Below, piece by piece: positions 1 through 13,811 of a DNA stretch of 13,811 bases. A program made the translations under genes and the position numbers. Source of the stretch: a virus. The stretch lies in IMG/VR virus record IMGVR_UViG_3300046047_000096. One strand, given 5' to 3'. Position 1 is the stretch's first letter. Every line of letters starts with the position of its first letter. A model generated the notes under the pieces. The model saw only the letters and a program-made list of their open reading frames with translations, made no database searches and had not been told where the DNA came from.

Positions 1-127
1 GCGGTGATCTCATCGCTGGCATCAATCATTTTCACCATCTGCTGTTCTTGGCTGTTGCCACTAGGCGGCTGGCGTGGCATACCGTCCAGCGCCACGGCCT
101 GGATATGCTTCACCCGGTCCACCTTCA
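1..127. repeat. Terminal overlap, copy 1 (identical to 13685-13811); signature of a circular contig
   Basis: Base-by-base comparison of 1-127 with 13685-13811 shows identity. The repeat lies inside a CDS and sits exactly at both window termini. Confidence 0.95.
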
Positions 128-191
128 CTTTGTTGTTCAGGTACCGGGACAGCACCCGCTGGGCGTTTCTTGCGCTTGGAGAATAGAACAT
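1..191 (-). CDS. ArpU/RinA-like late transcriptional activator, 5' portion; the gene is split by linearisation and continues at 13684 down to 13459
   Basis: ATG at 189-191 (minus) is preceded by GAAAGGGG 7 nt upstream. It reads MFYSPSARNAQRVLSRYLNNKVKVDRVKHIQAV... and runs off the left edge in frame. 191 + 226 nt = 417 nt = 138 aa plus stop across the junction. Confidence 0.7.
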   Translation of the reverse strand, partial: MFYSPSARNAQRVLSRYLNNKVKVDRVKHIQAVALDGMPRQPPSGNSQEQQMVKMIDASDEIT

Positions 192-206
192 AGTCGTGCC
201 CCTTTC

Positions 207-383
207 TTAATACGTTGGGCTGTCAGCATCAACAATCATGTTGGGGCAGCGCAACGTTTTGTAATGACCGTCCGGCCACACTAGCGTTACCGTGTTCTTG
301 CCCTGAATGGCTTGATTGAAGCCATCAATGTCAGAGTTGTAAATTTTCTTTCCGTCGGGGAACCATGCTTGAATACGGATCAT
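207..383 (-). CDS. Hypothetical small protein (58 aa)
   Basis: ATG at 381-383 has AGAAAGGG 8 nt upstream. The ORF-track start at 416 is a TTG without an RBS and lies inside the iteron field. No recognisable motif. Confidence 0.5.
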   Translation of the reverse strand: MIRIQAWFPDGKKIYNSDIDGFNQAIQGKNTVTLVWPDGHYKTLRCPNMIVDADSPTY

Positions 384-408
384 CGGGATCGCCCTTTCTG
401 TGGTTGAG

Positions 409-715
409 TGTTCCAAACTTTATGGAACAGATGGAACACTACGTAATTGCTGAGCTCCTTGTGGCTGTAGTGTTGTTCCACGTGTTCCATTGTTCCATGG
501 TTTTTCATCCTCTTGCAATACGGCCTAGGTCTTCTGCTCACTTATAAACATAAGACCTACCCATTTTTCACGGTTCAACCTTTAAAAAATTATGGAACAA
601 TGGAACAGAATGTTGTGAAGCCTTGTCCTGTAAGGTGTTAGGCTGTTCCATCGCTTGAAAAATCATGGAACAGTCTATGGAACGAAGAACGCTTTGAAGA
701 ACGCTTTATGGAACA
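409..715. repeat. Iteron cluster, putative replication origin
   Basis: The octamer ATGGAACA occurs at 422, 431, 592, 600, 665, 677 (ATGGAACG) and 708. Its complement TGTTCCAT occurs at 409 (7/8), 474 (7/8), 483, 491 and 644. An AT-rich core at 541-590 carries the inverted repeat TAGGTCTT (526-533) / AAGACCTA (552-559). A tandem GAAGAACGCTTT x2 lies at 684-707. The cluster sits immediately 3' of the helicase gene. Confidence 0.7.
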
Positions 716-2334
716 AAAGGATGGGATTCATGAAACATTGGGTTGATGTACGATTTCGTAAGCCGTAGCCCGATGTATCTGTATACGTTCGGTGGGCTTT
801 CAATGCCTTCACGGTCGAAGCCTTTACGGTTTCTAGTCCATTTCACGTGGCGCCGTGCTAGTTCCTTCTTAATCGTGGTGGCCGTTGTTTTGTCTGAATA
901 GTTGTTTTCGCGGCAGAACGCGGTGTATTCGTCCAGAACTTGTTTGGCTGATTCACCGCGGTTACTGGTCAGGTCAATTACAGCAGCTTCTTTCAAGAAC
1001 TCGCCGAAGTGATCGTTATCGTCAAGCCAGCGTTGTGTAGCGTCCTGAATGGCCTGGGGCTTGGCAAAGCCGTGTCCTTCATTCATCATTTTGGCGAATG
1101 CCTGCATACAGGAGACAGCGAAGGCGGGGGCTTCCTGTTCAACTTTCTTCATATCGTGGTGCTTCCAAAAGTCGCGGTTCACCCGTACGTCCCCGTTAAT
1201 CAGATCAATGACAATTAAGCGATCTCTGAACCCGCTCGTATTGTCGCCAAACGCTGGTAAGTCGTTAGCACTGAAAATCAGTTTCGCGTAGTTGATGTAG
1301 TTGAAGCCCTGGATGCCTTTGTATTCGGCATCAATTGGATCGCCACCGCTCAGCTTCTTTAGAATCGCCGTGCCCTTCAAAAAGCCTTTATCAACGTCGG
1401 CAACCATGTTGGCTTCCTTGCCGTAAAGATTAGATGTAGCAAAGCGGTTGTTACTGTCGGCAAGCTTTTGCGGTGGTTCAGCAGCACAATTGTCAATGCC
1501 CAGCACCTTGTCGCGAACAAACCGTAATAGGGTAGATTTCCCTTCACCGCCTTCGCCGTGTAGCCAAAGCATTTCTTGATAGGGCGCATAAGACTGATAG
1601 AAGCAGTAACCGATGTACTGCATAAAGGTCTCTGCTGCTTCGCCCATCATGGCCTTCAGTAATGAATCTGTTTCAGGGGTATTATTCCGGTCGGGGTTAA
1701 TTGCGTAATCGTGGGCGTTCAACAGATAGTAATGCGGATTATTTGGCAGCACCCGGTTTTTAAGCATGTCGTACGTGCCGTTCGCGAAAGCCACCAATTC
1801 AGGGTGCTCATTTTGGTCGAATGGCGAATGCTTGCCGAATTTCTCGTTCCACATCATGTAACGCATATACTTCCTTACAGCAATGACGTTCCTTTCTGAA
1901 TACAGTCCCCAGGCAAGCAATTCCCTGGCCGTACGGCTTTCAATTGTTTGGTTGTTTTCCCCCTTGCCAAACGTTCGCCAGCTGCCGCGATAATTTTCAT
2001 AGATGGCGCCTTCCATCAATGCGGGAAATGTTTCAATGGGATGCTTTTCTAGAAACAGATCACCGTAGGCCACGGAGTCAAAAGATATGTGGCGATCCAG
2101 ATGCCCATCCTTATTGCGCTGAATGGTAAAAGACAGCCACACCGGAATCCTAGTCTTGATGCTGTCGTTGAATTCCTTAATCTGTCCATTTGCTTGGTTT
2201 TCGTCGTTCGATAGACGGGGCAAGCGTTCTTTGTACACGTTGAATGGTTTTAGTTCTGTGGAGTTCATTATTTTCAGCTTTTCCGTTTCAGGGAACTGGG
2301 CCAGTGCGCGTTTCAATTCGTCCAGTGTTGTCAC
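706..2334 (-). CDS. P4/D5-family primase C-terminal domain with SF3 replicative helicase
   Basis: 542 aa. Walker A is LHGEGGEGKSTLL, with downstream acidic Walker B-like segments. The overall layout matches phage/plasmid primase P4-family C-terminal proteins. ATGA overlap with the upstream Prim-Pol gene. Confidence 0.9.
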   Translation of the reverse strand: MTTLDELKRALAQFPETEKLKIMNSTELKPFNVYKERLPRLSNDENQANGQIKEFNDSIKTRIPVWLSFTIQRNKDGHLDRHISFDSVAYGDLFLEKHPIETFPALMEGAIYENYRGSWRTFGKGENNQTIESRTARELLAWGLYSERNVIAVRKYMRYMMWNEKFGKHSPFDQNEHPELVAFANGTYDMLKNRVLPNNPHYYLLNAHDYAINPDRNNTPETDSLLKAMMGEAAETFMQYIGYCFYQSYAPYQEMLWLHGEGGEGKSTLLRFVRDKVLGIDNCAAEPPQKLADSNNRFATSNLYGKEANMVADVDKGFLKGTAILKKLSGGDPIDAEYKGIQGFNYINYAKLIFSANDLPAFGDNTSGFRDRLIVIDLINGDVRVNRDFWKHHDMKKVEQEAPAFAVSCMQAFAKMMNEGHGFAKPQAIQDATQRWLDDNDHFGEFLKEAAVIDLTSNRGESAKQVLDEYTAFCRENNYSDKTTATTIKKELARRHVKWTRNRKGFDREGIESPPNVYRYIGLRLTKSYINPMFHESHPFVP

Positions 2335-3167
2335 CTCCTAACTTTTTGGGCAAGTTCTCGTCGCATGATGGACTGAATGATTTTAGCCAGCTCTTTAGTT
2401 GGTAGTGGCGGCCGAACAAAATTGTTGTTCACCAGTTCCATAAGCCGGGTAAAGTTGTCGAAGTCCATGCCAGTATGCAATAGTGATCCTGCAACGCTGG
2501 CAAGCCACGAATTGCGTTCACCACTGTCCACGCCCTGTACAATTCGGTCCAAAAGCCGGCCAGACCAAAACTTTTGGCTGCTATGAAAATCATTGGTGAA
2601 TTTTCCGGCTGTACGCTGCCGCTCAATTTCGGCCAATAGCCATTCAGGTGCCGGGGCCAGGTCTTCTAACGTATACGTATCAACCGCTTTGTATCTCTTG
2701 CCGTAACGAATACTGGGGGCAACAGGCACGGCCAGTGCATTGTAATCAACGCCGGTTTCTTCACTCTGGCTTTGGGCGAAAAGTTTCTGTCCCATTGTCA
2801 GTGATAATTCTTTTGGATACGTGAAGAAAAAGTGTAAACCACCGCTGGGTGTTGCTTCGATATACGTATCAGTAGGCAGCATCGTGGCGCGGCCGTCGCT
2901 AACAAGCTGATTGATCGTTGCGATGCCATCGGATTTACTCGCATGGCCGCGGTCAATGTCCAGCATTAAGATATTGGTATCTGCTAGCGACAGACCAATA
3001 TTGTACGCGGGGCACTGTTCCCACCAGTCGTGAGCCTTCTGGGAGTCTAAACTGGCATCTTTATAGCCGTGTGAACCTTTGGGCGGGATTCGCGTCCCTG
3101 GGGCTAGGGGATATACCTTGAATCCATGGGCTTGATACGCCAAGGCACATTCAAGCATGGTTGCCAT
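2331..3167 (-). CDS. Bifunctional DNA primase/polymerase (AEP Prim-Pol N-terminal domain protein)
   Basis: 278 aa. Contains GFKVYPLAPGTRIPPKGSHGYKDAS, the acidic motif LMLDIDRGH and SGGLHFFF, all typical of the Prim-Pol family. RBS AGGAGAAAGGGG lies upstream of the ATG at 3165-3167. Confidence 0.9.
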   Translation of the reverse strand: MATMLECALAYQAHGFKVYPLAPGTRIPPKGSHGYKDASLDSQKAHDWWEQCPAYNIGLSLADTNILMLDIDRGHASKSDGIATINQLVSDGRATMLPTDTYIEATPSGGLHFFFTYPKELSLTMGQKLFAQSQSEETGVDYNALAVPVAPSIRYGKRYKAVDTYTLEDLAPAPEWLLAEIERQRTAGKFTNDFHSSQKFWSGRLLDRIVQGVDSGERNSWLASVAGSLLHTGMDFDNFTRLMELVNNNFVRPPLPTKELAKIIQSIMRRELAQKVRR

Positions 3168-3318
3168 TGCCGTGTGCCCCTTTCTCCTGATACAGTCCCC
3201 GGTATGCCCACCGTGCGATACGTGTGCGCATGTGGCGGGCCATCTTGCGTGTTAAGTGATCGATAGCCGTGTCAGCGGCCACCTGGTTTAGCATGGGAAT
3301 TACTTCTTGGTTTTTCAT
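3151..3318 (-). CDS. Hypothetical small protein (55 aa)
   Basis: ATG at 3316-3318 is preceded by GGAGG with a 7-nt spacer. The track start at 3333 has no RBS. It overlaps the Prim-Pol start by 17 nt. Confidence 0.5.
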   Translation of the reverse strand: MKNQEVIPMLNQVAADTAIDHLTRKMARHMRTRIARWAYRGLYQEKGAHGNGNHA

Positions 3319-3380
3319 TTCTCGCACCTCCATTATTTGCTGGGGATTATACCGTCGCCGCTACAGATCAAATTGACTTC

Positions 3381-3409
3381 TTGAAAAAAGTTCAGAGAAC
3401 TGGCATAAT
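3381..3409 (+). promoter_or_regulatory. Sigma-70-type promoter on the otherwise gene-free plus strand
   Basis: -35 TTGAAA (3381-3386), 17-nt spacer, TG-extended -10 TGgCATAAT (3401-3409). Confidence 0.45.
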
Positions 3410-3415
3410 GAAGGT

Positions 3416-3476
3416 GTGGAGAATATTCGTTATGCCCTGTGCCCCTAAGCATTGCCGTGCTTCGGGGTCTTTTTTT
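3416..3476 (+). ncRNA. Candidate ~60-nt antisense small RNA (promoter-to-terminator unit)
   Basis: The predicted start is about 7 nt after the -10. The unit ends at the hairpin CCCCTAAGCA (3442-3451) / TGCTTCGGGG (3458-3467) followed by TCTTTTTTT (3468-3476). It is antisense to the 3' end of the minus-strand gene 3445-3642 and the spacer before the replication genes. It contains no plausible ORF. Confidence 0.35.
3442..3476 (+). terminator. Rho-independent terminator, plus-strand orientation
   Basis: 10-bp stem with one mismatch, 6-nt loop, then a T-run. On the minus strand the same hairpin has no U-tract. Confidence 0.5.
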
Positions 3477-3642
3477 GCACTTTTTCCATCAAGGCGGCCG
3501 CTTCGGGTTTCACCATCATCAACGCCGCTTTCTCTTTGGTGAAGATCAACAGTGCGGATTCAAGTTGTGCAGCGTACCAAGCCAGATCAACGGCATCGCA
3601 CTCTTTCAGCAGCTCATTAGCGCGTTCCTCTGTAAAGCCCAT
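3445..3642 (-). CDS. Hypothetical small protein (65 aa)
   Basis: ATG at 3640-3642 with AAGAAAGGA upstream. Packed 5 nt after the preceding small ORF. Confidence 0.6.
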   Translation of the reverse strand: MGFTEERANELLKECDAVDLAWYAAQLESALLIFTKEKAALMMVKPEAAALMEKVQKKTPKHGNA

Positions 3643-3647
3643 CGTGG

Positions 3648-3773
3648 TCAGCGTCCTTTCTTGATCTCATCGGCATAAATCCACATCGTGAAGACGGCAC
3701 CTAGCAGGAATGCCAGGCCCAGACCGCCTAACGTACGGACGTGGGTGAACGTCCAGTAAATTAGGTCAGTCAT
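3648..3773 (-). CDS. Unlisted 41-aa single-pass membrane peptide
   Basis: Hand translation gives MTDLIYWTFTHVRTLGGLGLAFLLGAVFTMWIYADEIKKGR. Its ATG overlaps the upstream stop (ATGACTGA). It fills an otherwise unexplained gap. The RBS is weak. Confidence 0.4.
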   Translation of the reverse strand: MTDLIYWTFTHVRTLGGLGLAFLLGAVFTMWIYADEIKKGR

Positions 3774-3966
3774 CGGGATCACCACACACTGCCAGGAAGA
3801 TACGCGCTAAGCGTCGGGCCTTCGGGTCAAAATTGGGATCATCGGCCACGCGCTGGGCGGCAATCTTCATACCTGTCTCATCAATTCCCAGACCTTCGGG
3901 GGTCATTCGGAAATGGTCACTGGAAATGTTCCGAAAAATTGGGTACTGGGCTTGAAATTCAGCCAA
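3766..3966 (-). CDS. Hypothetical protein (66 aa from a TTG); possibly the 3' half of a gene interrupted by an in-frame TAA
   Basis: The only start candidate is TTG at 3964-3966, with no RBS. It is in the same frame as 3994-4149 and separated from it by one TAA plus 9 sense codons. Confidence 0.4.
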   Translation of the reverse strand: MAEFQAQYPIFRNISSDHFRMTPEGLGIDETGMKIAAQRVADDPNFDPKARRLARIFLAVCGDPDD

Positions 3967-3993
3967 GCTCTGGGGTTCTTTACCGACGTAGCC

Positions 3994-4149
3994 TTAATCA
4001 ATGGCTTTTTCCGTCGGCTCGCCGTTTTCGTCCAAAATACCGTTGGAGAACAGTAAGCGGAATGTCTCTTCCATCGTGATATTTTTGCCGGTATCCATAA
4101 TGACCCGGCGTGCAGCAGCCACGAGTGGGGAATACTGAACTTTATTCAT
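3994..4149 (-). CDS. Hypothetical small protein (51 aa)
   Basis: ATG at 4147-4149 with GAAGGAAG upstream. ATGAATAA start/stop overlap with the preceding ORF. The 84-aa track ORF is an upstream extension over another gene. Confidence 0.55.
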   Translation of the reverse strand: MNKVQYSPLVAAARRVIMDTGKNITMEETFRLLFSNGILDENGEPTEKAID

Positions 4150-4303
4150 CTGAATCTTCCTTCTTTCCTGTCGTAAACATCTGGGGCAATTCGTTAACCG
4201 TTCCGGGTTCAGCCAAGTATTCGGCGACCTCCTGAATCGTGATGCCATAGCCGTGGGAAATCAGTGCTCGGTAAACCTGGTTAATGTAATCGGGATCGGT
4301 CAT
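4142..4303 (-). CDS. Unlisted 53-aa protein
   Basis: Hand translation gives MTDPDYINQVYRALISHGYGITIQEVAEYLAEPGTVNELPQMFTTGKKEDSDE. GGAAGGA lies 7 nt upstream of the ATG at 4301-4303. Its stop overlaps the next start. Confidence 0.55.
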   Translation of the reverse strand: MTDPDYINQVYRALISHGYGITIQEVAEYLAEPGTVNELPQMFTTGKKEDSDE

Positions 4304-4353
4304 AATGCAGTCCTTCCATATCCAGCCGCCTGCCAGGACGATTTTTTCTTCTT

Positions 4354-4626
4354 CTAAATGGCTTTATCAGCCATGAACTGGATAAGTTGGGCTTTGCTGA
4401 TTCGCTTGGCTGAACCGATAAACGTCACTTTCAGTTCACCGTTCTTGATGAGCTTGTTCAACGTGCCGCGGGACAGGTGAATGAAGTCCGCTGCCTGGCC
4501 CAGGTTCAAGAAGTCGGGGCCTTTCTGTTCTGCTTGTGGCCGTTGCAGCATTTCCGCTACTGTCTGGCTGACCATTGCCCGAAGCTGGGCTTCAAACTCT
4601 GGCGTGGTGCTTACTTGTAATTGCAT
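4354..4626 (-). CDS. Excisionase-family (MerR/AlpA-like HTH_17) DNA-binding protein; Cro-like early regulator and/or Xis
   Basis: 90 aa. The C-terminal segment LNLGQAADFIHLSRGTLNKLIKNGELKVTFIGSAKRISKAQLIQFM fits the excisionase-type HTH. GGAGGA RBS. Transcribed divergently from the repressor. Confidence 0.8.
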   Translation of the reverse strand: MQLQVSTTPEFEAQLRAMVSQTVAEMLQRPQAEQKGPDFLNLGQAADFIHLSRGTLNKLIKNGELKVTFIGSAKRISKAQLIQFMADKAI

Positions 4627-4659
4627 GTTGGTTTCCTCCTAGCAATTTTTATAGCCAAA

Positions 4660-4739
4660 TTGACTACAAAAATTATGATATACCCAATACGGCTATTAGT
4701 CAACGCCTGTTGCAAAAAAATCGCCAAAACGGGTATAAT
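4660..4739. promoter_or_regulatory. Divergent promoter/operator region of the genetic switch
   Basis: Minus strand: -35 TTGACT (4698-4703), 17-nt spacer, -10 TATCAT (4675-4680). Plus strand: -35 TTGCAA (4710-4715), 18-nt spacer, -10 TATAAT (4734-4739). Inverted heptamers TTGACTA (4660-4666) / TAGTCAA (4697-4703) are possible operators. Confidence 0.5.
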
Positions 4740-4772
4740 GTTGATTAAGTAGTAAAGGAGGTAAACGCCAAA

Positions 4773-5381
4773 GTGAACAATCGAATTAAGTTATTCCGCC
4801 GGACACGGGGGATGACACAAAAACAGTTAGCCGATAAAGTAGGCCTTCCAGTTACCACACTTAGTAATTACGAACTGGGGAAAAGGACCCCACCTGTCTC
4901 TGTACTCAAAAACATTGCAAACGTGTTTCACACAAGCACAGCCTACTTGATGGGATTAGATGAGCCGTCTTCATATGAAAACGTCAATCCAAATGATGGA
5001 GCAAGCTCCCAACATGCTGTGTACAGTGAATTGGCCGACGATGTGGACATGCTCCAAGTGAATTGGGGTGGGGATTTGGATGATAGGGCGGAAAACATCC
5101 TTCGAAATTTAGATTCTTTCGTCCGCGCGTCCCATAACAACGCTATGTTGACAGCAGATAAAACGTTGGTCGGTAGTAATATTCAACAGTTAGATTGCAT
5201 TTCCTATGCAATTCGTGAAATAATTTCTTCTTCGTTTCCCGAAGCGTTAGATTCAGTGGACAATAAACTGAAAGGACTTGACAGAGAGAAAGCAAACGCC
5301 GTTCGCTTTTCCAAGCTACAAGGGGAAGTCTTGGAAGCCTTAAATAAACTCTATCTGGATAATTACTTCATAAAGCGTTAA
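4773..5381 (+). CDS. XRE-family HTH repressor (cI/Stl-like) with a non-peptidase C-terminal domain
   Basis: 202 aa. GTG start with AAAGGAGGT upstream. The N-terminus RGMTQKQLADKVGLPVTTLSNYELGKRTPPVSVLKNIANVFHTSTAYLMG is a classic XRE HTH. I see no S24 GDSM-type motif in the C-terminal ~130 aa. Confidence 0.88.
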   Translation: MNNRIKLFRRTRGMTQKQLADKVGLPVTTLSNYELGKRTPPVSVLKNIANVFHTSTAYLMGLDEPSSYENVNPNDGASSQHAVYSELADDVDMLQVNWGGDLDDRAENILRNLDSFVRASHNNAMLTADKTLVGSNIQQLDCISYAIREIISSSFPEALDSVDNKLKGLDREKANAVRFSKLQGEVLEALNKLYLDNYFIKR

Positions 5382-5445
5382 CTATCCTAGATCCTCTTAC
5401 ATATCTCACCGCCTGCCAGGACGTGACGATATGGAGGAATTAGCA

Positions 5446-6594
5446 ATGGCAAGTATTGATAGTTACACGACGAAGGCCGGGAAGAAGCTGTGGCGCTTCC
5501 AGGTCTGGACCCCGGCAGATCCTCACACCGGAAAGAAAAGCCACGTTATGCGCCAAGGATTTCCAACTAAGTCCGAAGCCAAGCTGCAAGCGGTTCGATT
5601 TGAAGCAGCAATGGACCGGCACGGTTTCAGGGAAGCAAGCCAGCTCAAGTTCCGGGAAGTTTATGAATCGTGGTTCCAGGGGTACCAAAACACGGTAAAA
5701 GAATCCACCTGGGCGAAGACCGCGGACAATGTTCGGCTGCATGTACTGCCGTTTTTCGGCGACAAACTGCTGGCGAAGATCACCCCAGTGGATTGCCAGG
5801 AAGCTGTTAATCAGTGGTACAAAAAGGGCTATACCAAGTATCAGACGTTTCTGAACCTGGTTTCCCGGGTTTTCCAGTATGCTGTCCGCATGGATCTGGT
5901 CATGAATGACCCCACAAAAAAAGTAATTGTCCCCCGGGACCGGAATAAACCGGCCACAACGATGGAGAACAATTACTACGATCTGGACGAACTGAAAAAA
6001 TTCTTTACAGTCCTAGCTGACCACGGCGATCAACAGGAATTCACCTTCTTCCGCGTGCTGGCATTTACTGGCATGAGAAAGGGCGAAGCGTTAGCATTAC
6101 TCTGGTCAGATATTTCCTTCAGCGGCGGCACCATTTCAATTACGAAGACCCAAACGCGTGGTGCCACCGGGATCATGGTCAATTCACCCAAAACGTACAA
6201 TTCTATTCGCAACATCAATGTAGATAAGAAGACGTTGGCGATCCTTAAGAAGTGGCAATGGCAGCAGCGGCAGAATTTCATGGCCTATGGGACGCCTAGC
6301 AATCCTGAACATCAGCTGGTATTCAGTACCCGCTACAATGGCATGATAGGCCCAGCGCAACCGGTGAACTGGCTAGATAAGTTGGTTGAAGCCTACGACT
6401 TGAAGAAGATCACCCCGCATGGATTTCGGCATACCTATGCCACGCTGGCTTTTGAATCTGGGCTGACGATTAAGGAAGTGCAGAAACAACTGGGCCACCG
6501 GTCGTTCCAGACCACAATGGATATTTACACGGCGGTCACCAAGAAGCAACAGGAACAGACGGCTGCCACCTTTGCCAAGTATGTGGATATGTGA
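5446..6594 (+). CDS. int: Tyrosine site-specific integrase
   Basis: ATG at 5446 lies 8 nt after GGAGG. The N-terminal arm-binding-type segment is MASIDSYTTKAGKKLWRFQVW. Catalytic-region motifs are FTGMRKGEALAL, HGFRHTYATLAF and LGHRSFQTTMDIYTAV. Confidence 0.95.
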   Translation: MASIDSYTTKAGKKLWRFQVWTPADPHTGKKSHVMRQGFPTKSEAKLQAVRFEAAMDRHGFREASQLKFREVYESWFQGYQNTVKESTWAKTADNVRLHVLPFFGDKLLAKITPVDCQEAVNQWYKKGYTKYQTFLNLVSRVFQYAVRMDLVMNDPTKKVIVPRDRNKPATTMENNYYDLDELKKFFTVLADHGDQQEFTFFRVLAFTGMRKGEALALLWSDISFSGGTISITKTQTRGATGIMVNSPKTYNSIRNINVDKKTLAILKKWQWQQRQNFMAYGTPSNPEHQLVFSTRYNGMIGPAQPVNWLDKLVEAYDLKKITPHGFRHTYATLAFESGLTIKEVQKQLGHRSFQTTMDIYTAVTKKQQEQTAATFAKYVDM

Positions 6595-6598
6595 ATTT

Positions 6599-6620
6599 CG
6601 TGTAGTGGCCGTGTAGTGGC
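6599..6620 (+). repeat. Tandem 11-bp repeat CGTGTAGTGGC x2; putative integrase arm-type sites (P arm)
   Basis: 6599-6609 and 6610-6620 are identical. The core TGTAGTGGC recurs at 6806-6825. Confidence 0.5.
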
Positions 6621-6721
6621 GAACGAAAATTCACAAATAGAAACATAACAATACAGCCAGCAATGGGGTCGCTTGTGAAATTTATAAAGTTCCCTAGTTA
6701 CCCAATTTTCCCCATTCGCTG

Positions 6722-6763
6722 GCTGTCATCGACGTTCAAAACGTTGATATGACAGCTTTTTTG
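6722..6763 (+). terminator. Rho-independent terminator downstream of int
   Basis: Imperfect stem GCTGTCATCGACGTT / AACGTTGATATGACAGC followed by TTTTTT (6757-6762). Confidence 0.6.
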
Positions 6764-6805
6764 TTGCTTCGAGTTGGTACCGATAAACACCCATTTACAG
6801 CGTTT

Positions 6806-6825
6806 TGTAGTGCCGATGTAGTGGC
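6806..6825 (+). repeat. Second pair of TGTAGTG(C/G)C repeats; putative arm-type sites (P' arm)
   Basis: TGTAGTGCC at 6806-6814 and TGTAGTGGC at 6817-6825. TGTAGTGGCGAA is shared with 6612-6623. Confidence 0.45.
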
Positions 6826-7033
6826 GAAAAGCGTCAGAAAACCAAGTTACTGGCAGGCGGTTGCCGTTGTGTGTAGCGCACAGCGGTTATTTTTTTGCGC
6901 TGAATTAGGTATGTCCAAAAATGGCGACACCCACGGGGCAAAATTCCGCCGCCAGTTGATCCAGACAGTCATTCACCCGTCTTCTTCGCTGGGCGTGCAC
7001 CAGAAACCGCCTGTCAGCACTGACTTTTCAGGC

Positions 7034-7062
7034 AAACAAAAAAACGGGCATTTCTGCCCGTT
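7034..7062 (-). terminator. Rho-independent terminator closing the minus-strand packaging/head operon
   Basis: Perfect 8-bp stem AACGGGCA / TGCCCGTT with a 4-nt loop. On the minus strand it is followed by TTTTTGTTTG. It lies 60 nt after the connector gene stop. Confidence 0.75.
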
Positions 7063-7121
7063 CGACGATTAAATTTGGGTCAGTGAAAGGTAACGGGCCT
7101 TACACCAACAACTATATTGTA

Positions 7122-7427
7122 TTACAAAGTAGTGCCTTTGGCAAGCGCTTTACCTCGTAACTGTTGAATCATACTCACCACAGAGTAGGGTATTTCTTGG
7201 CTGGCTGTGGTGACGGCACCACGGTTCTGGTACCAGAATTCTACCAGCATTGCCACGGCAATATCATACTGGCTGAAATTCGCCAGGTCTTCGGCAGCGG
7301 CTGCACTGTCCACCGCATTGTGTACGTAGTCCTGGGCCGCTGTGATGTAGCCATTAATCAGCCCATCATCTGCCGTGTCGGTATCTAGGCGTAGGCTGTT
7401 CTTGATCGCTTCTAGGGTAACTGTCAT
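7122..7427 (-). CDS. gp6-like head-tail connector (DNA-packaging/head-tail adaptor family)
   Basis: ATG at 7425-7427 follows AGGAGA. MTVTLEAIKNSLRLDTDTADDGLINGYITAAQDYVHNAV...QLRG resembles the SPP1 gp15/HK97 gp6-type connector family. The track start at 7469 has no RBS. Confidence 0.78.
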   Translation of the reverse strand: MTVTLEAIKNSLRLDTDTADDGLINGYITAAQDYVHNAVDSAAAAEDLANFSQYDIAVAMLVEFWYQNRGAVTTASQEIPYSVVSMIQQLRGKALAKGTTL

Positions 7428-7440
7428 GTTTTCATCTCCT

Positions 7441-7473
7441 AAATGAAAGGGGCGTACCCGTAGGCACACCCCC
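7441..7473 (-). terminator. Possible leaky terminator/attenuator between the capsid and connector genes
   Basis: The minus strand reads GGGGTGTGCCTACGGGTACGCCCC followed by TTTCATTT. The stem is imperfect and GC-rich. Confidence 0.3.
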
Positions 7474-7549
7474 GTAGTGATTAATTACTTGGCGTGAATT
7501 GTGATCGCCCCGGGTCCACTGGCGCCTGTAGTAACGTCAGTCGGGGACG

Positions 7550-9094
7550 TTATTTTGACGGCGTAGCTGCTGCGGCCGGGGTAATTTCGACGTACCGAGC
7601 AGCGTCTTCGTCAATCTTCTGGTAGTCGTTGCGGATCACCACAGCCAAGCCGCTGGCATAGGAATCGAACTTTTCCCAGCTGGTTTCTACCTGGTTCTTT
7701 TGAGCCAGAAAGACAGATTGCTCCAAGTCACCGACAATCATCGGGAACGTGCCCGCTACTGGGTCAGCCAGCACCTTATTCGATACCACAATGACCGGGG
7801 CGCCGAATAATTGCTTGCCGGACGGGGCCGTGATGGACGGTTGCAACAGGTAGCGGCCTTCACTGTCCTTCAGTGTATCCAGCCAATTGAACCCGCTCTG
7901 GTTCGTAATAACCGACAGAGAAAGCGCCGGGTCCAGTTCAACGTTGAAGATCTTCTTCAAGTCGTCCGTATTGGTTGCAGCAATCTTCTTGAAGCTGGTC
8001 AGCAGCTTGGTGATTTCCGTGTTGTTGGTGTTTTGCACCAGCTTTTTCAGTTGGGCTTTCACTTCGGCGACGATATTCACTTCGCTGTCTTCTACCAGTT
8101 CGTCAGACAGATAAATCTTTCCGGCCCGGGTGGTTACCTTGTAATCCACACCCTTGAATAAATTGGCGTCAATGTCAGGAATTTCAGCCAGTTCCTCTTT
8201 CGTTGCCAGCACGCCATTATTGACCAACGCCACCGGGTAGGTGCCCACGGGCGTACCCACAGACTTCACTGTAACGTACTTCGCCAAGTCATAGCTTGAT
8301 TGCTTCAAGTCCAGTACGTCTTTAATGACTTCCTTCGGTACGACGGCCCCCGCTGATACGGTGGTCAGTCCGTCCCGGTGCTCACCGTGGGAACGGATGT
8401 AATCTTCAAAAGCGCGGCTTTCAGTGTGTGCTGCATCAATAATTGTCTTTTCCATGGGGGTAACCTCTTTCTTTTGTTGGTTGTTATTTTGGTCGTCAAG
8501 CCATGCGGTGTAGCTGCGCTTGTCCACTCGTACGTTCGTATCATCGTACGCGCCGATTGCACAAAGCGATACATCAAAAAGGCTCTTCACTTGCTTAATT
8601 GTGCGGATCACCTGGCCGCTATCGTCTTTGGTGAATGTATCGCCATCGGGGGCAGCCACGAAAGTGAAGCTCATCGCGGACAGGTTGCCCGCTTCGACGT
8701 TCTTAAAAGCGTCGGATGCCATCGTGGTATCGGGCAAAGTGGCTTCAAAATGCAGTCCCTTATCATCAACGTCCAATTTCAGCGTGCCGGCCTTCGTACT
8801 GGCTAAAACCTGGCTGAAATCGTGATTCGAAACAAGATAAACGTCTTTCAAGTCCACGTCATCAAACGCGTGGGGATCCACAATCTCACGGAACCCCCCA
8901 AGATCCTTACTTGGTTGATTGAATACCACGGCATAACCTGTTAACTTCTTAGGGCTTGTGGTAGCCTGTTGCTTGGCGTCTGTTCCCTCATTCGGTGTAG
9001 CGCCGTCTGCTTTGGTCGGTTGATCGGCACTTACACCAGCGTCTGGGGTCAGGCGTTTTTCTAATACATCATTGTTCGCCATCTGCTGGCTCAC
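7550..9094 (-). CDS. Prohead serine protease (HK97/S78 type) fused in frame to an HK97-fold major capsid protein
   Basis: 514 aa. The N-terminal half (YAVVFNQPSKDLGGFREIVDPHAFDD...LVSNHDFSQVLAST...LSAMSFTF) is protease-like. The C-terminal ~300 aa (ESRAFEDYIRS...LLQPSITAPSGKQLFGAPVIVVSNKVLA...) is MCP-like. Start is GTG 9094 or ATG 9082. An internal in-frame ATG at 8453-8455 has an AAGAGG RBS. Confidence 0.88.
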   Translation of the reverse strand: MSQQMANNDVLEKRLTPDAGVSADQPTKADGATPNEGTDAKQQATTSPKKLTGYAVVFNQPSKDLGGFREIVDPHAFDDVDLKDVYLVSNHDFSQVLASTKAGTLKLDVDDKGLHFEATLPDTTMASDAFKNVEAGNLSAMSFTFVAAPDGDTFTKDDSGQVIRTIKQVKSLFDVSLCAIGAYDDTNVRVDKRSYTAWLDDQNNNQQKKEVTPMEKTIIDAAHTESRAFEDYIRSHGEHRDGLTTVSAGAVVPKEVIKDVLDLKQSSYDLAKYVTVKSVGTPVGTYPVALVNNGVLATKEELAEIPDIDANLFKGVDYKVTTRAGKIYLSDELVEDSEVNIVAEVKAQLKKLVQNTNNTEITKLLTSFKKIAATNTDDLKKIFNVELDPALSLSVITNQSGFNWLDTLKDSEGRYLLQPSITAPSGKQLFGAPVIVVSNKVLADPVAGTFPMIVGDLEQSVFLAQKNQVETSWEKFDSYASGLAVVIRNDYQKIDEDAARYVEITPAAAATPSK

Positions 9095-10253
9095 TTCCTT
9101 CTAGTTTGTTTTGGTACTTGTAAATATTGTCCAGTGGCGTGTAATTCAGTGACGCCATAGGTACATCGCCGTTTGCCACTTTAGGCAAGCCCAACTTTTC
9201 CCGGGCCTCGTTCGTGGTCAGCACGCCACCTTGCAGACCCGTCACGGCCAACTTCTGCATGGTCACCGGATCGGCAGAGAACAGCCGGTCAGTGTTGAAG
9301 CTGAACCGCTTGTCACCTGCGGATACCTTGGCATCTAACTCGCTGGCGAAGCAGGCAAAGTATTGCACCAAGGTATTTTGCAGATAAATCACGTTGCTTT
9401 GCACGCTGCTAGAATGTTCACTTTCAATGCCCAGGCGATCCAGCGGCAGGCCGAACGCCTTTGCAATTTGCCGCGTTGTGAAGTCGTTGGAGTTCACCAG
9501 CTTCAGCACGTCCGTATTGACCTCCAATTGCTTATAGTCCATGTCATTATCCAGAATGATAGTCCGTAAAGCGTTATCTCCGCTGTTGGCTTCTTCGAAC
9601 TTCTTACGGATGTTGTTCTTGGCGTCGGCGTCCAGCGCGGCTTTCTGTACTTTCAGCAGGCCAGTCCCTTGTACGCCAGACTTGAAGAACCCGGTCAGCA
9701 GTTTGTTGCCTGCTTTCTGAATCGTCACTTCATCACGTAGGCTGTAAAGCGGTGACAGGCCCGTGTAGCCGTCTTGGGTGAAACACTTGAAGTGCAGCAC
9801 GTCAGACGGTTCTAAGCGCTGTGCGTGCCCCTCTGGGGGCGTGTACGTGTAACTGACCTCACCGCTTGCATCGTCCAGCTTCACCACCATTTGGCTATTC
9901 GGGATCAACGTGAAGCCGGTGATCTGGCTGCTGTTGTTCCGGTCAATACGGGCAAAGCTGTTGCCGTTCAGCAGCATGTTCGCCACCAGAGAAAACTTAA
10001 ACGCCCAGGCGGTCATGTGATCGTTTGGGGCCTTATTCAGCAGCGTGGTCAGCTTCTTATCGTCGTATTCGATGGGATTACTCGCTAAGTCGCTGGCGAT
10101 CACTCGAATGGCGGTAAATACGTCCGAATTTCGCAACGCCCCAGCACCCACGTACACGCCGCTGTCATTGCTGGTCATGCTGATAAGGGCATCCAGAAAC
10201 GGTTCACTGTTGTCTTCGCGGGGCTGACTGGGATCGTTCTTGAAAAAACTCAT
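9069..10253 (-). CDS. Portal protein (HK97 family)
   Basis: ATG at 10251-10253 follows GAAGGTGA. 394 aa with an SDVFTAIRVIASDLASNP... portal-family N-terminus. ATGA overlap with the upstream small ORF. The track start at 10343 is an extension. Confidence 0.9.
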   Translation of the reverse strand: MSFFKNDPSQPREDNSEPFLDALISMTSNDSGVYVGAGALRNSDVFTAIRVIASDLASNPIEYDDKKLTTLLNKAPNDHMTAWAFKFSLVANMLLNGNSFARIDRNNSSQITGFTLIPNSQMVVKLDDASGEVSYTYTPPEGHAQRLEPSDVLHFKCFTQDGYTGLSPLYSLRDEVTIQKAGNKLLTGFFKSGVQGTGLLKVQKAALDADAKNNIRKKFEEANSGDNALRTIILDNDMDYKQLEVNTDVLKLVNSNDFTTRQIAKAFGLPLDRLGIESEHSSSVQSNVIYLQNTLVQYFACFASELDAKVSAGDKRFSFNTDRLFSADPVTMQKLAVTGLQGGVLTTNEAREKLGLPKVANGDVPMASLNYTPLDNIYKYQNKLEGSEPADGEQ

Positions 10254-10435
10254 TGGTTCACCTTCTTTCCTGTCTCGTTTTGGTTGATAAGCACGGCCAC
10301 TATAATCAGTACCGTCCCTAGCGCAACCAAGGCCCATTGCCACCCCAGCAGTGCCCAGATGCCCGCCACCAATAGCAGAAAGCCCAGCACCAGCACCACC
10401 GTTTGGATGTTAAAAACTGAAATTATTGCTCGCAT
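10250..10435 (-). CDS. Small two-TM membrane protein between terL and portal
   Basis: 61 aa with hydrophobic helices VVLVLGFLLLVAGIWALL and ALVALGTVLIIVAVLI. Overlaps both neighbours. Confidence 0.6.
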   Translation of the reverse strand: MRAIISVFNIQTVVLVLGFLLLVAGIWALLGWQWALVALGTVLIIVAVLINQNETGKKVNQ

Positions 10436-12116
10436 AGAACCGGTTCAACTCCTCACTGTTTTCTGCCGTCGTAATTGAATCCATTGCCACTGTGTACGCG
10501 TTCATTAGGGCGGCTATCGGGTCAATTTTCGTAGCGTTCCGGGCCTTGTCAATAATGGGGTTGTTGTTGGAGTCCCATTTTAGAATGGCGTTGTTCACGG
10601 CGTAGGCCAGCAGCTCATTTTTCCGGTGCTTAATGTGCTCATTGAATAGGTCATCACGAAAACGGACCGTGGGAATTGACAGCGTGCGCTGGCCTTGGCG
10701 TACCTCAACCATTGGCAAGTTACGTTTTTCAAACTCCGGTAGAAGGTATGAAAACGACCAGGGATCGTAACAGATGGCCCGCACGTTCCACTGGTTCTGC
10801 TCGATCAGGTCGAGAATGAAACTCAAAACCTCGGAATAATCGATCATTCCGCTTTCCAGTTTGGTGATGCTGCACTCGCCGCGACTAGCACCGCTGATGT
10901 AGTCGAAGCCGTCCCGTTTGCTCTTTTCATCAATGCCGCCGTACTTCGTGCCCACAAAGCTGAATGAATCAGCATACAGATACCCGTTCATAGGATTCAG
11001 CCAACTCACCGAAGTCAGATCACTGGATTTACTAAGGTCAATACCTAGAAAAACGTCCCGGCTAGTCGTATCTGGTTCTTCCACAGTGGCTTTGTTCCAG
11101 TCGGTCAGGCTGATATAGCTATCGGCCCGGGCCTGAACGAACATGTTGAAGTTTTTGATAAGCAGCGGGGCCAAATTGTTCCGTTTAGCGGCCAGATCCA
11201 CATCGGCCTGCAAACTGGGAATCATCGTTCTGGCGCGTTCCTTGTTGGCTAGAAGCGGATTGGATTTTTCCCAGGCGGCCGGGTCAAACGCTTCTTTGCG
11301 GTCATCTTGTTCCCAGATGGCAATGAAGTAACGGTCGGCGCTTTGTTTCCCAGTCAGTACCTGCCGGACAAACTTGTATTCCTGGTACATTGGCCCGTTT
11401 AAGTTCGGCCCGGCGGTACTAATAACCGCTAGTAAAGAATTATCGCTGTTTATTTGCCCCGATTTAAGCACGTTATAGATTTCATTCGTCTTTGCTAATG
11501 CATATTCATCTATGATAGCTAAGTCCGATTGGTATCCATCCAGGCTATGCAGATCACTCGCCAACGGTAAAGCTCTGCTATCGGTTTCTAAGTCGCGTAC
11601 TTCGTCCCGGTTGATCTTCAAGCGCTGACGCAATGACGGGGACACTTTGGTGACTTGCCGTAACCCACTTGCCATCATGCCATAGGCTAAACGCGCCTGG
11701 GCCGCCGTATTGGCGCTGTAGACAATTTCCCGGTTGCGGGCTGGCTTATTCTCTAGTAACAGGTACAACGCGCCGATGGACGCCATCAGGTACGATTTCC
11801 CCGACTTGCGGGCCATGGAAATGAATGCCCGGTCATAGCGCCTGTTTCCGGTTTCCTTGTCTCGCCAGCCGAACAATTCCGATAGCAGCCACTTCTGGAA
11901 AAGTTCCAGTTTCAGCACACTACCGTCCCGGGCGGGCATCAACTCCACGAACTCAATCGCCTTAGCAGCCTTGTCTTCGTCGAAGTAGTAGGGGAAGTCT
12001 GCGGACTTGCTGGCCTTAATATCTCGCCGATACCGCCGGGCGGCTTGTTTAATCTTTTTCCCGGCCACAATATCGCCAGCCAGTACCTTGTCCGTGTATT
12101 CCTTTGCCCAGTTCAT
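10410..12116 (-). CDS. terL: Terminase large subunit
   Basis: 568 aa. Walker A-like MARKSGKSYL, Walker B-like DLAIIDEYA, and a C-terminal nuclease-like region. ATGA overlap with terS. Confidence 0.95.
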   Translation of the reverse strand: MNWAKEYTDKVLAGDIVAGKKIKQAARRYRRDIKASKSADFPYYFDEDKAAKAIEFVELMPARDGSVLKLELFQKWLLSELFGWRDKETGNRRYDRAFISMARKSGKSYLMASIGALYLLLENKPARNREIVYSANTAAQARLAYGMMASGLRQVTKVSPSLRQRLKINRDEVRDLETDSRALPLASDLHSLDGYQSDLAIIDEYALAKTNEIYNVLKSGQINSDNSLLAVISTAGPNLNGPMYQEYKFVRQVLTGKQSADRYFIAIWEQDDRKEAFDPAAWEKSNPLLANKERARTMIPSLQADVDLAAKRNNLAPLLIKNFNMFVQARADSYISLTDWNKATVEEPDTTSRDVFLGIDLSKSSDLTSVSWLNPMNGYLYADSFSFVGTKYGGIDEKSKRDGFDYISGASRGECSITKLESGMIDYSEVLSFILDLIEQNQWNVRAICYDPWSFSYLLPEFEKRNLPMVEVRQGQRTLSIPTVRFRDDLFNEHIKHRKNELLAYAVNNAILKWDSNNNPIIDKARNATKIDPIAALMNAYTVAMDSITTAENSEELNRFYASNNFSF

Positions 12117-12583
12117 TGTTCAATGACCTTCGCGAATGGATCGTCAGGCTTCTTCACGTCGCTCTTGATGTTCATCTTCAACCGACCATAGACAGACAAG
12201 CCCAGACTGTCCGCCAGCTTCATCAATTCCGCCGTAGCCCGCTGCTTAATGCCCACACTGGGGTTCTGACGCGTGTTGCCGTTGTCAGCGGTCAATATCA
12301 AGCCGTTTGCTGTAATGTCTTCCTGGGCGTGCTGAACGTCCGCATACGCCTGGCAATAACTGGCGATCATTGCCACATCCAGTTCACTCACCGGAATTTC
12401 TTGCTTCAACAGCGGCACAATACGCTGCCACTCCGTCACTGCCACTTCATCCAGCCAAGTAGGGGGCTGGGCAGTGAGTTCCTTGAATTGAAACATCGTT
12501 TGCTGCGCCTGTTGCCGGGCTTCTTTCTCTTTCGGGGGCATGTGGCCCCGAATGTCTTCCACATTCTTGAATCGGTTCGCCAT
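12113..12583 (-). CDS. terS: Terminase small subunit (P27-like family)
   Basis: 156 aa. The segment VTEWQRIVPLL...LDVAMIASYCQAYADVQHAQEDITANGLIL...NPSVGIKQRATAELMKLADSLGLS fits P27-type small terminases. It is positioned directly upstream of terL. Confidence 0.85.
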   Translation of the reverse strand: MANRFKNVEDIRGHMPPKEKEARQQAQQTMFQFKELTAQPPTWLDEVAVTEWQRIVPLLKQEIPVSELDVAMIASYCQAYADVQHAQEDITANGLILTADNGNTRQNPSVGIKQRATAELMKLADSLGLSVYGRLKMNIKSDVKKPDDPFAKVIEQ

Positions 12584-12718
12584 TTTCTCACTACCTCTTG
12601 TTTTTATTGATTATTTCTATTATTTATTTAATACGTCCGCGGGCCAGCAAAAATTATCGGATTTATTTGTCAAGAAAGGCTCACCCATCGGTTCTCATAA
12701 ACGTTGATATAGCGGGCC
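12584..12718. other. Putative cos region (packaging cleavage/recognition site)
   Basis: This is the only sizeable intergenic gap in the late operon, between HNH and terS. A strongly AT-rich tract (12600-12632) abuts a GC island, CGTCCGCGGGCCAG (12634-12647), containing the palindrome CCGCGG. GCGGGCC repeats at 12639-12645 and 12712-12718. Confidence 0.35.
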
Positions 12719-13111
12719 TTATCTTAATGGGGGCAAATCATATCTTTCAATATCCTCTTGTGACTTGGTATAGTGGCAGGAATTACATAAACTCTGTAAG
12801 TTTGCTTCATCTAAACGCTTGTTCCAATCAACCCGCAACGGAATTATATGGTCGCAAACGTCCGCTTTCACGTACAAACCGCGTTCTTTGCATCGCTTGC
12901 AAATTGGATTGCGTAAACGGAATGAATACGACAACTTTCGCCACTGCTTCGACTTGTAGAACTGGAAATATTTCCCACCGATTGCTTTGCGGTTCTGGTA
13001 GTTGTCGTAGGCGTTTGGCGCGCGATGCTCTGGCTTGTGTTCAGCACAGTAAGCCACGTTGAACGGCACCAATGTGCGACAGCCTGCATGATTGCAGAAC
13101 TTCATCACCAC
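12719..13111 (-). CDS. HNH endonuclease (packaging-associated)
   Basis: 130 aa. Cys pairs (CNHAGC, CAEH, CKRCK, CNSCH) and DHIIPL...N...LQSLCNSCH form an HNH/zinc-finger signature. Located adjacent to terS. Confidence 0.9.
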   Translation of the reverse strand: MVMKFCNHAGCRTLVPFNVAYCAEHKPEHRAPNAYDNYQNRKAIGGKYFQFYKSKQWRKLSYSFRLRNPICKRCKERGLYVKADVCDHIIPLRVDWNKRLDEANLQSLCNSCHYTKSQEDIERYDLPPLR

Positions 13112-13123
13112 GAAAGCATCACC

Positions 13124-13444
13124 TCATTCTTCATATTCAAGCGTCACCAAGTCCATACCGTTCACGTCATCGTCTGGCAGAACTTGCTTCACGTTGTACT
13201 GTTTCCCGTTGATCTGAAATGCACCACTATTCGTAACTCGCTCATTGTGCCGAATGATGATTACTTTCACTTCGCCATTGCTCTCACCTGAAAGTTGCTG
13301 CACATCTTTCAGCGTCTGCTTATATGAACCGTAGAACAGTGTCATCACTTCATGCCAGACTTCTGTCGGCTCACCGTCTCCTGACGGCGTGAACTCGCCG
13401 TATGCAGCACGTTTGTTCAGTCGTGCCAGTCTTACATTCTTCAT
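13124..13444 (-). CDS. Head closure / head-tail joining protein (SPP1 gp16-like)
   Basis: 106 aa. LNKRAAY...DGEPTEVWHEVMTLFYGSYKQ...VKVIIIRHNERV...FQINGKQYNVKQV...LVTLEYEE matches the pattern of the head-tail joining family. AAGGAAG RBS. Confidence 0.72.
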   Translation of the reverse strand: MKNVRLARLNKRAAYGEFTPSGDGEPTEVWHEVMTLFYGSYKQTLKDVQQLSGESNGEVKVIIIRHNERVTNSGAFQINGKQYNVKQVLPDDDVNGMDLVTLEYEE

Positions 13445-13458
13445 TGCGTTAACTTCCT

Positions 13459-13811
13459 TTACCAGTTCTGATTCGCGGATTCACGTAGTTCACCATTGCG
13501 ATACACTTCAGCGAATGCTTCAAGCGAAACCGCAACGTACTCGTTCCAATGTCGGTCAGTGATCGGAATGCCCAGTGAGTCCAGCAGGTCCAGCCAGTCG
13601 CTGGCTTTGTCCTGGTAGGTCATGTACATGTAGCGGATCAACTTCCGGGGCTTTGGTTTCAACTTCTTCACCGCGGCATCCACGGCGGTGATCTCATCGC
13701 TGGCATCAATCATTTTCACCATCTGCTGTTCTTGGCTGTTGCCACTAGGCGGCTGGCGTGGCATACCGTCCAGCGCCACGGCCTGGATATGCTTCACCCG
13801 GTCCACCTTCA
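13459..13811 (-). CDS. ArpU/RinA-like late transcriptional activator, 3' portion (5' end runs off the window; 13685-13811 duplicates 1-127)
   Basis: The ORF is open to the right edge. The sequence ...QMVKMIDASDEITAVDAAVKKLKPKPRKLIRYMYMTYQDKASDWLDLLDSLGIPITDRHWNEYVAVSLEAFAEVY resembles the ArpU family (sigma-like C-terminal HTH). Confidence 0.7.
   Translation of the reverse strand, partial: KVDRVKHIQAVALDGMPRQPPSGNSQEQQMVKMIDASDEITAVDAAVKKLKPKPRKLIRYMYMTYQDKASDWLDLLDSLGIPITDRHWNEYVAVSLEAFAEVYRNGELRESANQNW

Follow-up and report, generated by a model that had tools for sequence, protein, structure and literature searches.

A 13.7-kb circular viral record as the very probable excised form of a capsid-forming phage-inducible chromosomal island of Schleiferilactobacillus harbinensis

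The DNA considered here, IMG/VR virus record IMGVR_UViG_3300046047_000096, is a single stretch of 13,811 nucleotides (the window, in its entirety), and very probably it represents a capsid-forming phage-inducible chromosomal island (cfPICI, also written cf-PICI) of Schleiferilactobacillus harbinensis, excised and closed into a circle, with a unit length of 13,684 bp. An earlier note, made from the letters alone, had described the window as a self-contained satellite of cf-PICI architecture that builds its own heads, and both the gene content and the recovery of a discrete element bounded by attachment (att) sites support that description. The same DNA is found in public data in three states: as a free circle, as an integrated copy, and as the empty attachment site attB. 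The kind of element is not new, since the family, its prevalence in Lactobacillaceae, and the fusion of its protease and capsid genes have all been published already.

That the molecule is a 13.7-kb circle, as the earlier note had held, follows from an exact terminal repeat and from identical, circularly permuted contigs in other samples. The 127-bp repeat is the kind of overlap with which a de Bruijn assembler ends a circular path, and its removal gives the unique unit of 13,684 bp. Exact-protein look-ups recovered the same DNA, 100% identical, from other public assemblies with different breakpoints: a Joint Genome Institute (JGI) contig of 13,829 bp (L038) opens the identical element inside terL, and a Logan contig of 13,714 bp (L055), which amounts to the circle plus a 30-nt k-1 overlap, opens it at the att site. 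G+C content runs between 44% and 53% along the window (about 0.5 overall), and the whole circle gave no megablast match to phages or plasmids. The overlap of the circle and the features of its attachment region are as follows.

1–127 = 13685–13811, no strand: terminal direct repeat (exact match of the ends; assembly overlap of the circle)
6595–7121, no strand: attP region, the largest non-coding stretch at 527 bp (arm-type repeats and replacement tRNA terminator)
6693–6706, plus strand: 14-bp att core, CCTAGTTACCCAAT, equal to the 3' end of the host tRNA-Gln(CTG) (four att forms; ARAGORN)
7042–7063, minus strand: terminator-like hairpin downstream of the last late gene, Ad1 (consensus match only)

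Integration proceeds by tyrosine-recombinase crossover at this 14-bp core, at the 3' end of tRNA-Gln(CTG). In a JGI contig of 15,018 bp (L053) host DNA flanks an identical copy of the element at either end, with CCTAGTTACCCAAT at both junctions; on the Ad1 side the flank is a tRNA-Gln(CTG) gene whose 3' end, according to ARAGORN, is the core, and on the int side it is the tRNA's own terminator followed by a sugar-binding lipoprotein gene. Integrated copies have tRNA-Gln and host genes as neighbors at one end, and at the other end an ABC-transporter operon. The flanks of L053 are 99% identical to the complete S. harbinensis genome CP041364.1 (L061), which holds the empty attB, and the flanking proteins are named S. 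harbinensis by NCBI. The sequences of attB, attL, attP, and attR match base for base around the core as site-specific recombination predicts, unitig breakpoints fall at 6693 and 6706, and the junctions together with the empty site place the ends of the element 416 bp beyond Ad1 and 99 bp beyond int. Arm-type repeats of the form TGTAGTGSC stand at 6601–6620 and 6806–6825, two on each side of the core (4 found against 0.18 expected), and these fit the arm-binding domain of the integrase. ARAGORN found no tRNA in attP when run on the window, the tRNA being recognizable only with the host flank.

The search for integrated host copies bounded by att repeats that the earlier note had called for succeeded, and it extends beyond L053: on long contigs, of 263 kb and 51 kb among others, close relatives are found at this tRNA with nothing but host genes around them, including genes for an ABC transporter, DUF1304, a deaminase, and a two-component system. 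The possibility that the window is a fragment of a larger, normal prophage, which contiguity with tail and lysis genes would have revealed, is refuted by the permuted circles, the att-bounded integration with host genes on both sides, and the empty attB; tail and lysis modules are not contiguous with the element.

Some further observations concern the attP region itself. Just past the core, at about 6712–6761, the element carries its own hairpin and T-run, which replaces the tRNA-Gln terminator on integration, and the host terminator is displaced to the other junction. Several S. harbinensis relatives carry a DUF1304 gene between Ad1 and attL. An ORF (open reading frame) of 107 amino acids (aa) at 6749–7072 on the plus strand, called in JGI assemblies, is probably not a gene, because it has no homologues in any library, overlaps terminator-like hairpins, and lies in a region that is replaced in relatives.

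The full HK97-type head and packaging set that the earlier note had recognized, with two connectors, an HNH endonuclease, and a protease-capsid fusion, is matched component by component by hidden Markov models (HMMs) of Pfam and PHROGs.

13124–13444, minus strand: head closure (head completion) protein Hc1 (Phage_HCP 1e-7; phrog_25 7e-11)
12719–13111, minus strand: HNH endonuclease, packaging accessory of HNH-cos systems (HNH 1.3e-10; phrog_144 7e-38)
12584–12718, no strand: HNH-terS intergenic region, candidate cos (11 nt at 12680–12690, CTCACCCATCG, absent between the ends of contig L039)
12113–12583, minus strand: TerS (Terminase_4 6e-24; phrog_83 3e-38)
10410–12116, minus strand: TerL (TerL_nuclease 3e-57, TerL_ATPase 3e-28; phrog_9 1e-137)
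9069–10253, minus strand: portal, 394 aa (Phage_portal 1e-71; phrog_12 3e-95)
7550–9082, minus strand: fused S78 prohead protease and HK97-fold major capsid protein, 510 aa (Peptidase_S78 9e-44, Phage_capsid 3e-25; phrog_2263 1e-135)
7122–7427, minus strand: head-tail adaptor Ad1, gp6-like (Phage_connect_1 5e-12; phrog_40 2e-30)

These late genes are read from the minus strand in the order Hc1, HNH, TerS, TerL, a 61-aa ORF, portal, protease-capsid, and Ad1. In the fusion protein, Peptidase_S78 covers residues 46–197 and Phage_capsid residues 249–476, within one ORF in all relatives, and the end-to-end match to the 551-position phrog_2263 indicates that the fusion is a family trait and not a frameshift artefact. 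The sole Rfam match in the window, a sub-threshold hit to IRES_Bip at 9969–10102 on the minus strand inside the portal gene (20.8 bits against a gathering score of 40), is attributable to chance.

A candidate for the packaging site comes from a Logan contig of 13,673 bp (L039, SRR35178714), which holds the whole element with ends at 12679 and 12691 and omits the 11 nt CTCACCCATCG between them; a circular assembly would have had an overlap of 30 nt here. This gap is the pattern expected of packaged linear DNA with an 11-nt 3' overhang blunted in library preparation, which suggests a cos in the HNH-terS interval, and the GenBank record of the related element R23.1 is cut at the corresponding point, 104 nt upstream of terS. 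A search for further contigs ending at the putative cos returned L039 only, and since this is one contig the call stays tentative.

Even at permissive thresholds, searches of Pfam, PHROGs, and NCBIfam link no ORF to a family of tail, holin, or endolysin proteins, and this includes the small ORFs, among which such matches would have spoken against a satellite. The further claim of the earlier note, that no unassigned space was left for such functions, was overstated, as the circle is 87% coding and eight ORFs have no assigned function. Nevertheless, because all eight are at most 65 aa long and together total less than 1.3 kb, they cannot hold a tail tube, tape measure, baseplate, or endolysin. 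The small ORFs delimited in this way include the following.

207–383, minus strand: 58-aa ORF, conserved in S. harbinensis relatives (called in public assemblies; no family match)
3151–4303, minus strand: five small early ORFs, at 3151–3318, 3445–3642, 3766–3906, 3994–4149, and 4142–4303 (called in public assemblies)
10250–10435, minus strand: conserved 61-aa protein with two predicted transmembrane helices (hydropathy; phrog_7105, phrog_502, and phrog_4810 at about 1e-7)

Among the five early ORFs the only family match is to phrog_25006, of unknown function, with no match to tail, lysis, or defense families, and a PADLOC scan for defense cargo gave only generic helix-turn-helix (HTH) matches to the XRE repressor. 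Longer versions of two ORFs (84 aa at 3994–4248 and 69 aa at 207–416) were set aside in favor of the shorter ones, which are consistently called in public assemblies. The 61-aa ORF, missing from the list of the earlier note, overlaps the end of terL and the start of the portal gene and is kept at this junction in essentially all relatives, over a range of TerL identity of 49–77%; its PHROG matches are labelled "membrane protein" or unknown function, and none is labelled holin.

The remaining modules serve integration, regulation, and replication, all of which the earlier note had named (int, a repressor/excisionase-type switch, Prim-Pol, SF3 helicase) and all of which are present and supported by HMM matches.

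5431–6594, plus strand: tyrosine integrase with arm-binding domain (Phage_integrase 5e-22, Phage_int_SAM_3 2e-18, Arm-DNA-bind_4 6e-5; phrog_1 7e-75)
4773–5381, plus strand: XRE repressor, a Stl analogue, with N-terminal HTH and an uncharacterized C-terminal domain of about 130 aa (HTH_3 4.5e-15; phrog_8, phrog_4)
4627–4772, no strand: divergent promoter (switch) region between the HTH_17 operon and XRE-int (sigma-70-like consensus matches only)
4354–4626, minus strand: HTH_17 protein (MerR/excisionase/AlpA-like), first gene of the leftward operon (HTH_17 1.6e-8; phrog_668 1e-10; phrog_66 1e-6)
2331–3167, minus strand: Prim-Pol with PriCT_1 (Prim-Pol 6e-24, PriCT_1 6e-17; phrog_695 4e-41)
706–2334, minus strand: SF3 (D5-type) replicative helicase (DUF5906 5e-20, D5_N 4e-5; phrog_864 4e-94)
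409–726, no strand: iteron replication origin, immediately behind the 3' end of the helicase gene (ATGGAACA in 9 exact copies, in both orientations, and further degenerate ones)
1–191, minus strand: 5' part of a 138-aa ArpU-family activator, across the circle junction (phrog_248 "transcriptional activator" 4e-14; remote homologues)
13459–13684, minus strand: 3' part of the ArpU-family activator (ORF seen on the circularized sequence)

Transcription of the minus strand would run from HTH_17 through the five small ORFs, Prim-Pol, helicase, origin, 58-aa ORF, and ArpU-like activator into the late genes, with the XRE repressor and integrase on the plus strand. The predicted sigma-70-like sites of the switch stand back to back (4703–4675, minus; 4710–4739, plus) as consensus matches only, and phrog_66, matched by the HTH_17 protein, is labelled "excisionase and transcriptional regulator". 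The iteron origin proposed in the earlier note is genuine: all 9 exact ATGGAACA copies fall in 422–715, against 0.66 expected in the whole window, and none of 200 shuffles reaches 9. The non-coding stretch of the origin, at 322 bp, is second in size to attP.

The "ArpU-type late activator" of the earlier note fared less simply. The 138-aa protein has no direct match in Pfam, NCBIfam, or PDB and falls short of the TIGR01637 model, and what supports the name is its match to phrog_248 together with remote homologues (P0202, P0203, P0205) that themselves match TIGR01637 at 1e-22 to 1e-31 (78–109 bits against a cut-off of 43). These homologues align over their full length at 27–32% identity, with E values of 1e-5 to 8e-4, and it was an exhaustive HMMER search that reached ArpU-family members, a word-indexed protein search giving only two clusters. 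The protein is therefore best described as a divergent ArpU-like activator, with family membership that is transitive only. Weak ArpU matches recur in Lactiplantibacillus and Limosilactobacillus relatives (L009, 12056–12424; L015, 12536–12952), after the adaptor gene at the far end, which makes the ArpU-like gene a feature of the lineage and not a peculiarity of this element. A literature search for ArpU together with PICI found no paper linking them.

The family was scanned with the protease-capsid protein as query and one genome per species. In 24 loci of Lactobacillaceae and Vagococcus the same gene order (int, regulator, primase/helicase, HNH, terS, terL, portal, protease-capsid, Ad1) recurs without tails at 48–77% protein identity, and host genes lie beyond. 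Homologues of the protease-capsid protein number 1229 below 1e-20, and the best 120 of the 1229 all carry both the protease and the capsid Pfam domains; the nearest named homologue among the matches listed is from S. perolens, at 89% identity. The closest deposited phages, at 72–74% protease-capsid identity, are only the 14-kb tail-less records R23.1 and JB1P3, whereas true phages among the top matches listed have at most 50% identity in this protein and encode protease and capsid as separate genes. The order of accessory late genes, ArpU-like and head closure, is not fixed in the family. Judged from sequence alone, three loci (L004, L008, L017) have a head-closure-like ORF after Ad1.

Within S. 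harbinensis the element appears as a stable packaging module joined to exchangeable regulatory and replication modules. Close relatives at the same tRNA-Gln site (L049–L058) have kept the packaging genes at 90–100% identity, and the regions compared with them for swapping were 412–3185 and 4640–5394 of the window. In six of the seven relatives that cover it, the XRE gene is replaced by other alleles (198–230 aa), and Prim-Pol or helicase homologues of this type are undetectable in all seven whose sequence spans the full replication module; most relatives carry instead an 875-aa D5_N/DUF5906/Pox_D5 fusion or a 764-aa NrS1-1-pol-like/D5_N protein. Swapping of the repressor while the packaging module is kept is what would be expected if repressors track different helper phages.

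The gene content agrees with the published description of cfPICIs. De Sousa et al. 2023 (PMC10085698) report 969 cfPICIs, "all but three in chromosomes", with a median size of 14 kb and a median of 19 proteins. SatelliteFinder, whose rules forbid tail and holin genes, places them in 25% of Lactobacillaceae genomes; a merged protease-capsid gene is reported as the norm in Firmicutes, and AlpA, MerR, and Stl regulator types all occur. Alqurainy et al., who define cf-PICIs (10.1101/2022.09.08.507074), have the operon of Firmicutes group 2, from Lactococcus and Enterococcus, begin with hnh-terS-terL. The element contains the published component set (integrase, regulator, primase-replicase, HNH, TerS, TerL, portal, protease, capsid, adaptor, connector) and is in line with it in size, at 13,684 bp and about 20 genes. 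It shares with the Firmicutes cfPICIs of Lactobacillaceae and Enterococcaceae the core set, the merged protease-capsid gene, the initial hnh-terS-terL, a scale of about 14 kb and about 20 genes, the lack of tail and holin genes, and the chromosomal integration; it differs in having its head-closure gene upstream of HNH and not after the adaptor. Neither its ArpU-like activator nor its two-transmembrane ORF is among the 11 SatelliteFinder markers, and S. harbinensis was not found among the hosts named in the accessible text of these papers. The earlier note had wondered whether the fused gene, the ArpU-type activator, or the XRE repressor sets this element apart. All three are present, the ArpU assignment being divergent and indirect, and none lies outside described variation: the fusion is typical of Firmicutes cfPICIs and their regulator types are varied, so these two do not distinguish it.

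The closest comparisons are with R23.1 (OP869847; L060 = OP869847.1, 14,518 bp) and JB1P3 (PV668529; L059 = PV668529.1, 14,135 bp), both deposited as Lacticaseibacillus phages, which have the same architecture and likewise carry the small membrane ORF at the terL-portal junction. Beyond the protease-capsid protein (74% identity in R23.1), their TerL and portal are 75–76% identical to those of the element, whereas Int, regulator, and Ad1 are only 26–43% identical, and tblastn detected no ArpU-like homologue in either. R23.1 was sequenced at 333x coverage from a mitomycin C-induced L. rhamnosus culture together with the 41.6-kb phage R23.9; it has no tail, holin, or lysin genes, carries membrane proteins of the GlsB/YeaQ/YmgE family and MscL as cargo, has similar sequences in 13 strains, and was not termed a satellite (PMC10219966).

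More distant systems share parts of the plan. EcCIEDL933, the experimentally characterized E. coli prototype cf-PICI of 15.4 kb, likewise has int, regulator, rep, HNH, TerS, TerL, portal, protease, capsid, two connectors, and no tails, but in this and other Proteobacteria elements the morphogenetic genes lead, protease and capsid have a gene each, and induction is via AlpA; its lineage is reported to have arisen independently. Staphylococcal pathogenicity islands (SaPIs) and other classical PICIs of Gram-positive cocci have in common with the element an integrase, a divergent switch with a Stl-like XRE repressor, a primase-helicase with an iteron origin 3' of the helicase gene, and TerS, but SaPIs are without capsid, portal, TerL, and connector genes and remodel helper capsids instead. 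A complete temperate siphophage has tail, tape-measure, and lysis modules beside its head module, and none of these adjoin the element at its junctions.

If the element behaves as SaPIs and EcCIEDL933 do, then in the integrated state the XRE repressor would shut the leftward promoter until a protein of a helper prophage or infecting siphophage inactivates it, possibly through the uncharacterized C-terminal domain. The HTH_17 protein and Int would then excise the element, Prim-Pol and helicase would replicate it from the iterons, and the ArpU-family activator would switch on the late genes. The protease-capsid fusion and the portal are predicted to build small procapsids, with the protease domain cleaving itself off, after which TerS, TerL, and HNH may cut the putative cos between HNH and terS and package one 13.7-kb unit. 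Ad1 and Hc1 would complete the neck, and the helper would supply tails and lysis.

Four other readings of the same DNA have to be weighed against a cfPICI. The one that survives best, though we regard it as very unlikely, is a plasmid-like episome (a phage-plasmid) maintained by its own Prim-Pol, helicase, and iterons and not dependent on a helper. The element was assembled as a circle in several metagenomes, and Lactiplantibacillus carotarum has a related 14.5-kb element on deposit under the name "plasmid PLA6" (L022, NZ_OX443576.1); the same strain also has a chromosomal copy (L023). Against an episome stand the integrase, the arm-type sites, the attB in a tRNA gene, and the copies found integrated in isolate as well as metagenome contigs; no partition or toxin-antitoxin genes were detected in the Pfam, PHROGs, and PADLOC scans, and the published cfPICIs lie almost exclusively in chromosomes.

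Extremely little probability remains for a decaying prophage remnant, a non-functional element that has lost its tail and lysis modules. Only phage-like genes are present, and tools of the PHASTER type score such elements "incomplete", as happened with R23.1. But all ORFs are intact, the att sites are precise and their empty counterpart exists, excised circular copies occur in several samples, the relative R23.1 was enriched in an induced lysate, and a 12–14.5-kb architecture has been kept across many genera at 48–77% protein identity, which implies selection.

We give just as little credence to a minimal autonomous virus or gene-transfer-agent-like particle whose tail or release functions would reside in small ORFs, with, for instance, the two-transmembrane ORF as a holin. 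One of the eight unassigned ORFs is indeed a conserved small membrane protein, and cf-PICIs are reported to release tail-less capsids (10.1101/2025.02.11.637232), yet ORFs of at most 65 aa and less than 1.3 kb in total leave too little for a tail or an endolysin, none matches a tail or lysis family, and the PHROG labels of the membrane protein do not include holin. An assembly artefact, whether a chimeric or a falsely circularized contig, can be all but dismissed, since even with an assembler-generated overlap the sequence is 100% identical in JGI and Logan assemblies of different samples with differing breakpoints, and one copy has host flanks on both sides.

Several points nevertheless weigh against the assignment to cfPICIs. 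The 61-aa two-transmembrane protein could conceivably have a holin-like role. No helper can be named, because the only phage relatives of the connector proteins are siphophage proteins, and the deposited ones are at most about 40% identical. The cos assignment draws on one contig and the breakpoint of one GenBank record, and the SatelliteFinder rules for cfPICIs were applied by hand to the gene content. What is said above on the need for a helper, the size of the capsids, the use of helper tails, and the action of an antirepressor on the repressor is inferred by analogy with SaPIs and EcCIEDL933.

With a cfPICI as by far the most probable identity, one may ask whether this satellite lineage exceeds the E. 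coli prototype in autonomy, having its own ArpU-family activator to drive the head and packaging genes without recourse to the late regulator of the helper, a two-transmembrane protein acting in release (in the manner of a holin or pinholin) or exclusion, and need of a helper only for derepression and tails; we consider this unlikely. The value of the element lies less in any new principle than in its complete delimitation and the multi-state evidence for it, with exact attP and attB, a tRNA-Gln target, an iteron origin, and a candidate cos. Packaged cf-PICI DNA has been reported from viromes (10.1101/2025.02.11.637232), and the 14-kb GenBank "phages" JB1P3 and R23.1 and the 14.5-kb "plasmid PLA6" appear to be cfPICI-type satellites under other labels. 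The S. harbinensis element can serve as a fully delimited reference for the cfPICIs of Lactobacillaceae, from a food- and fermentation-associated species.

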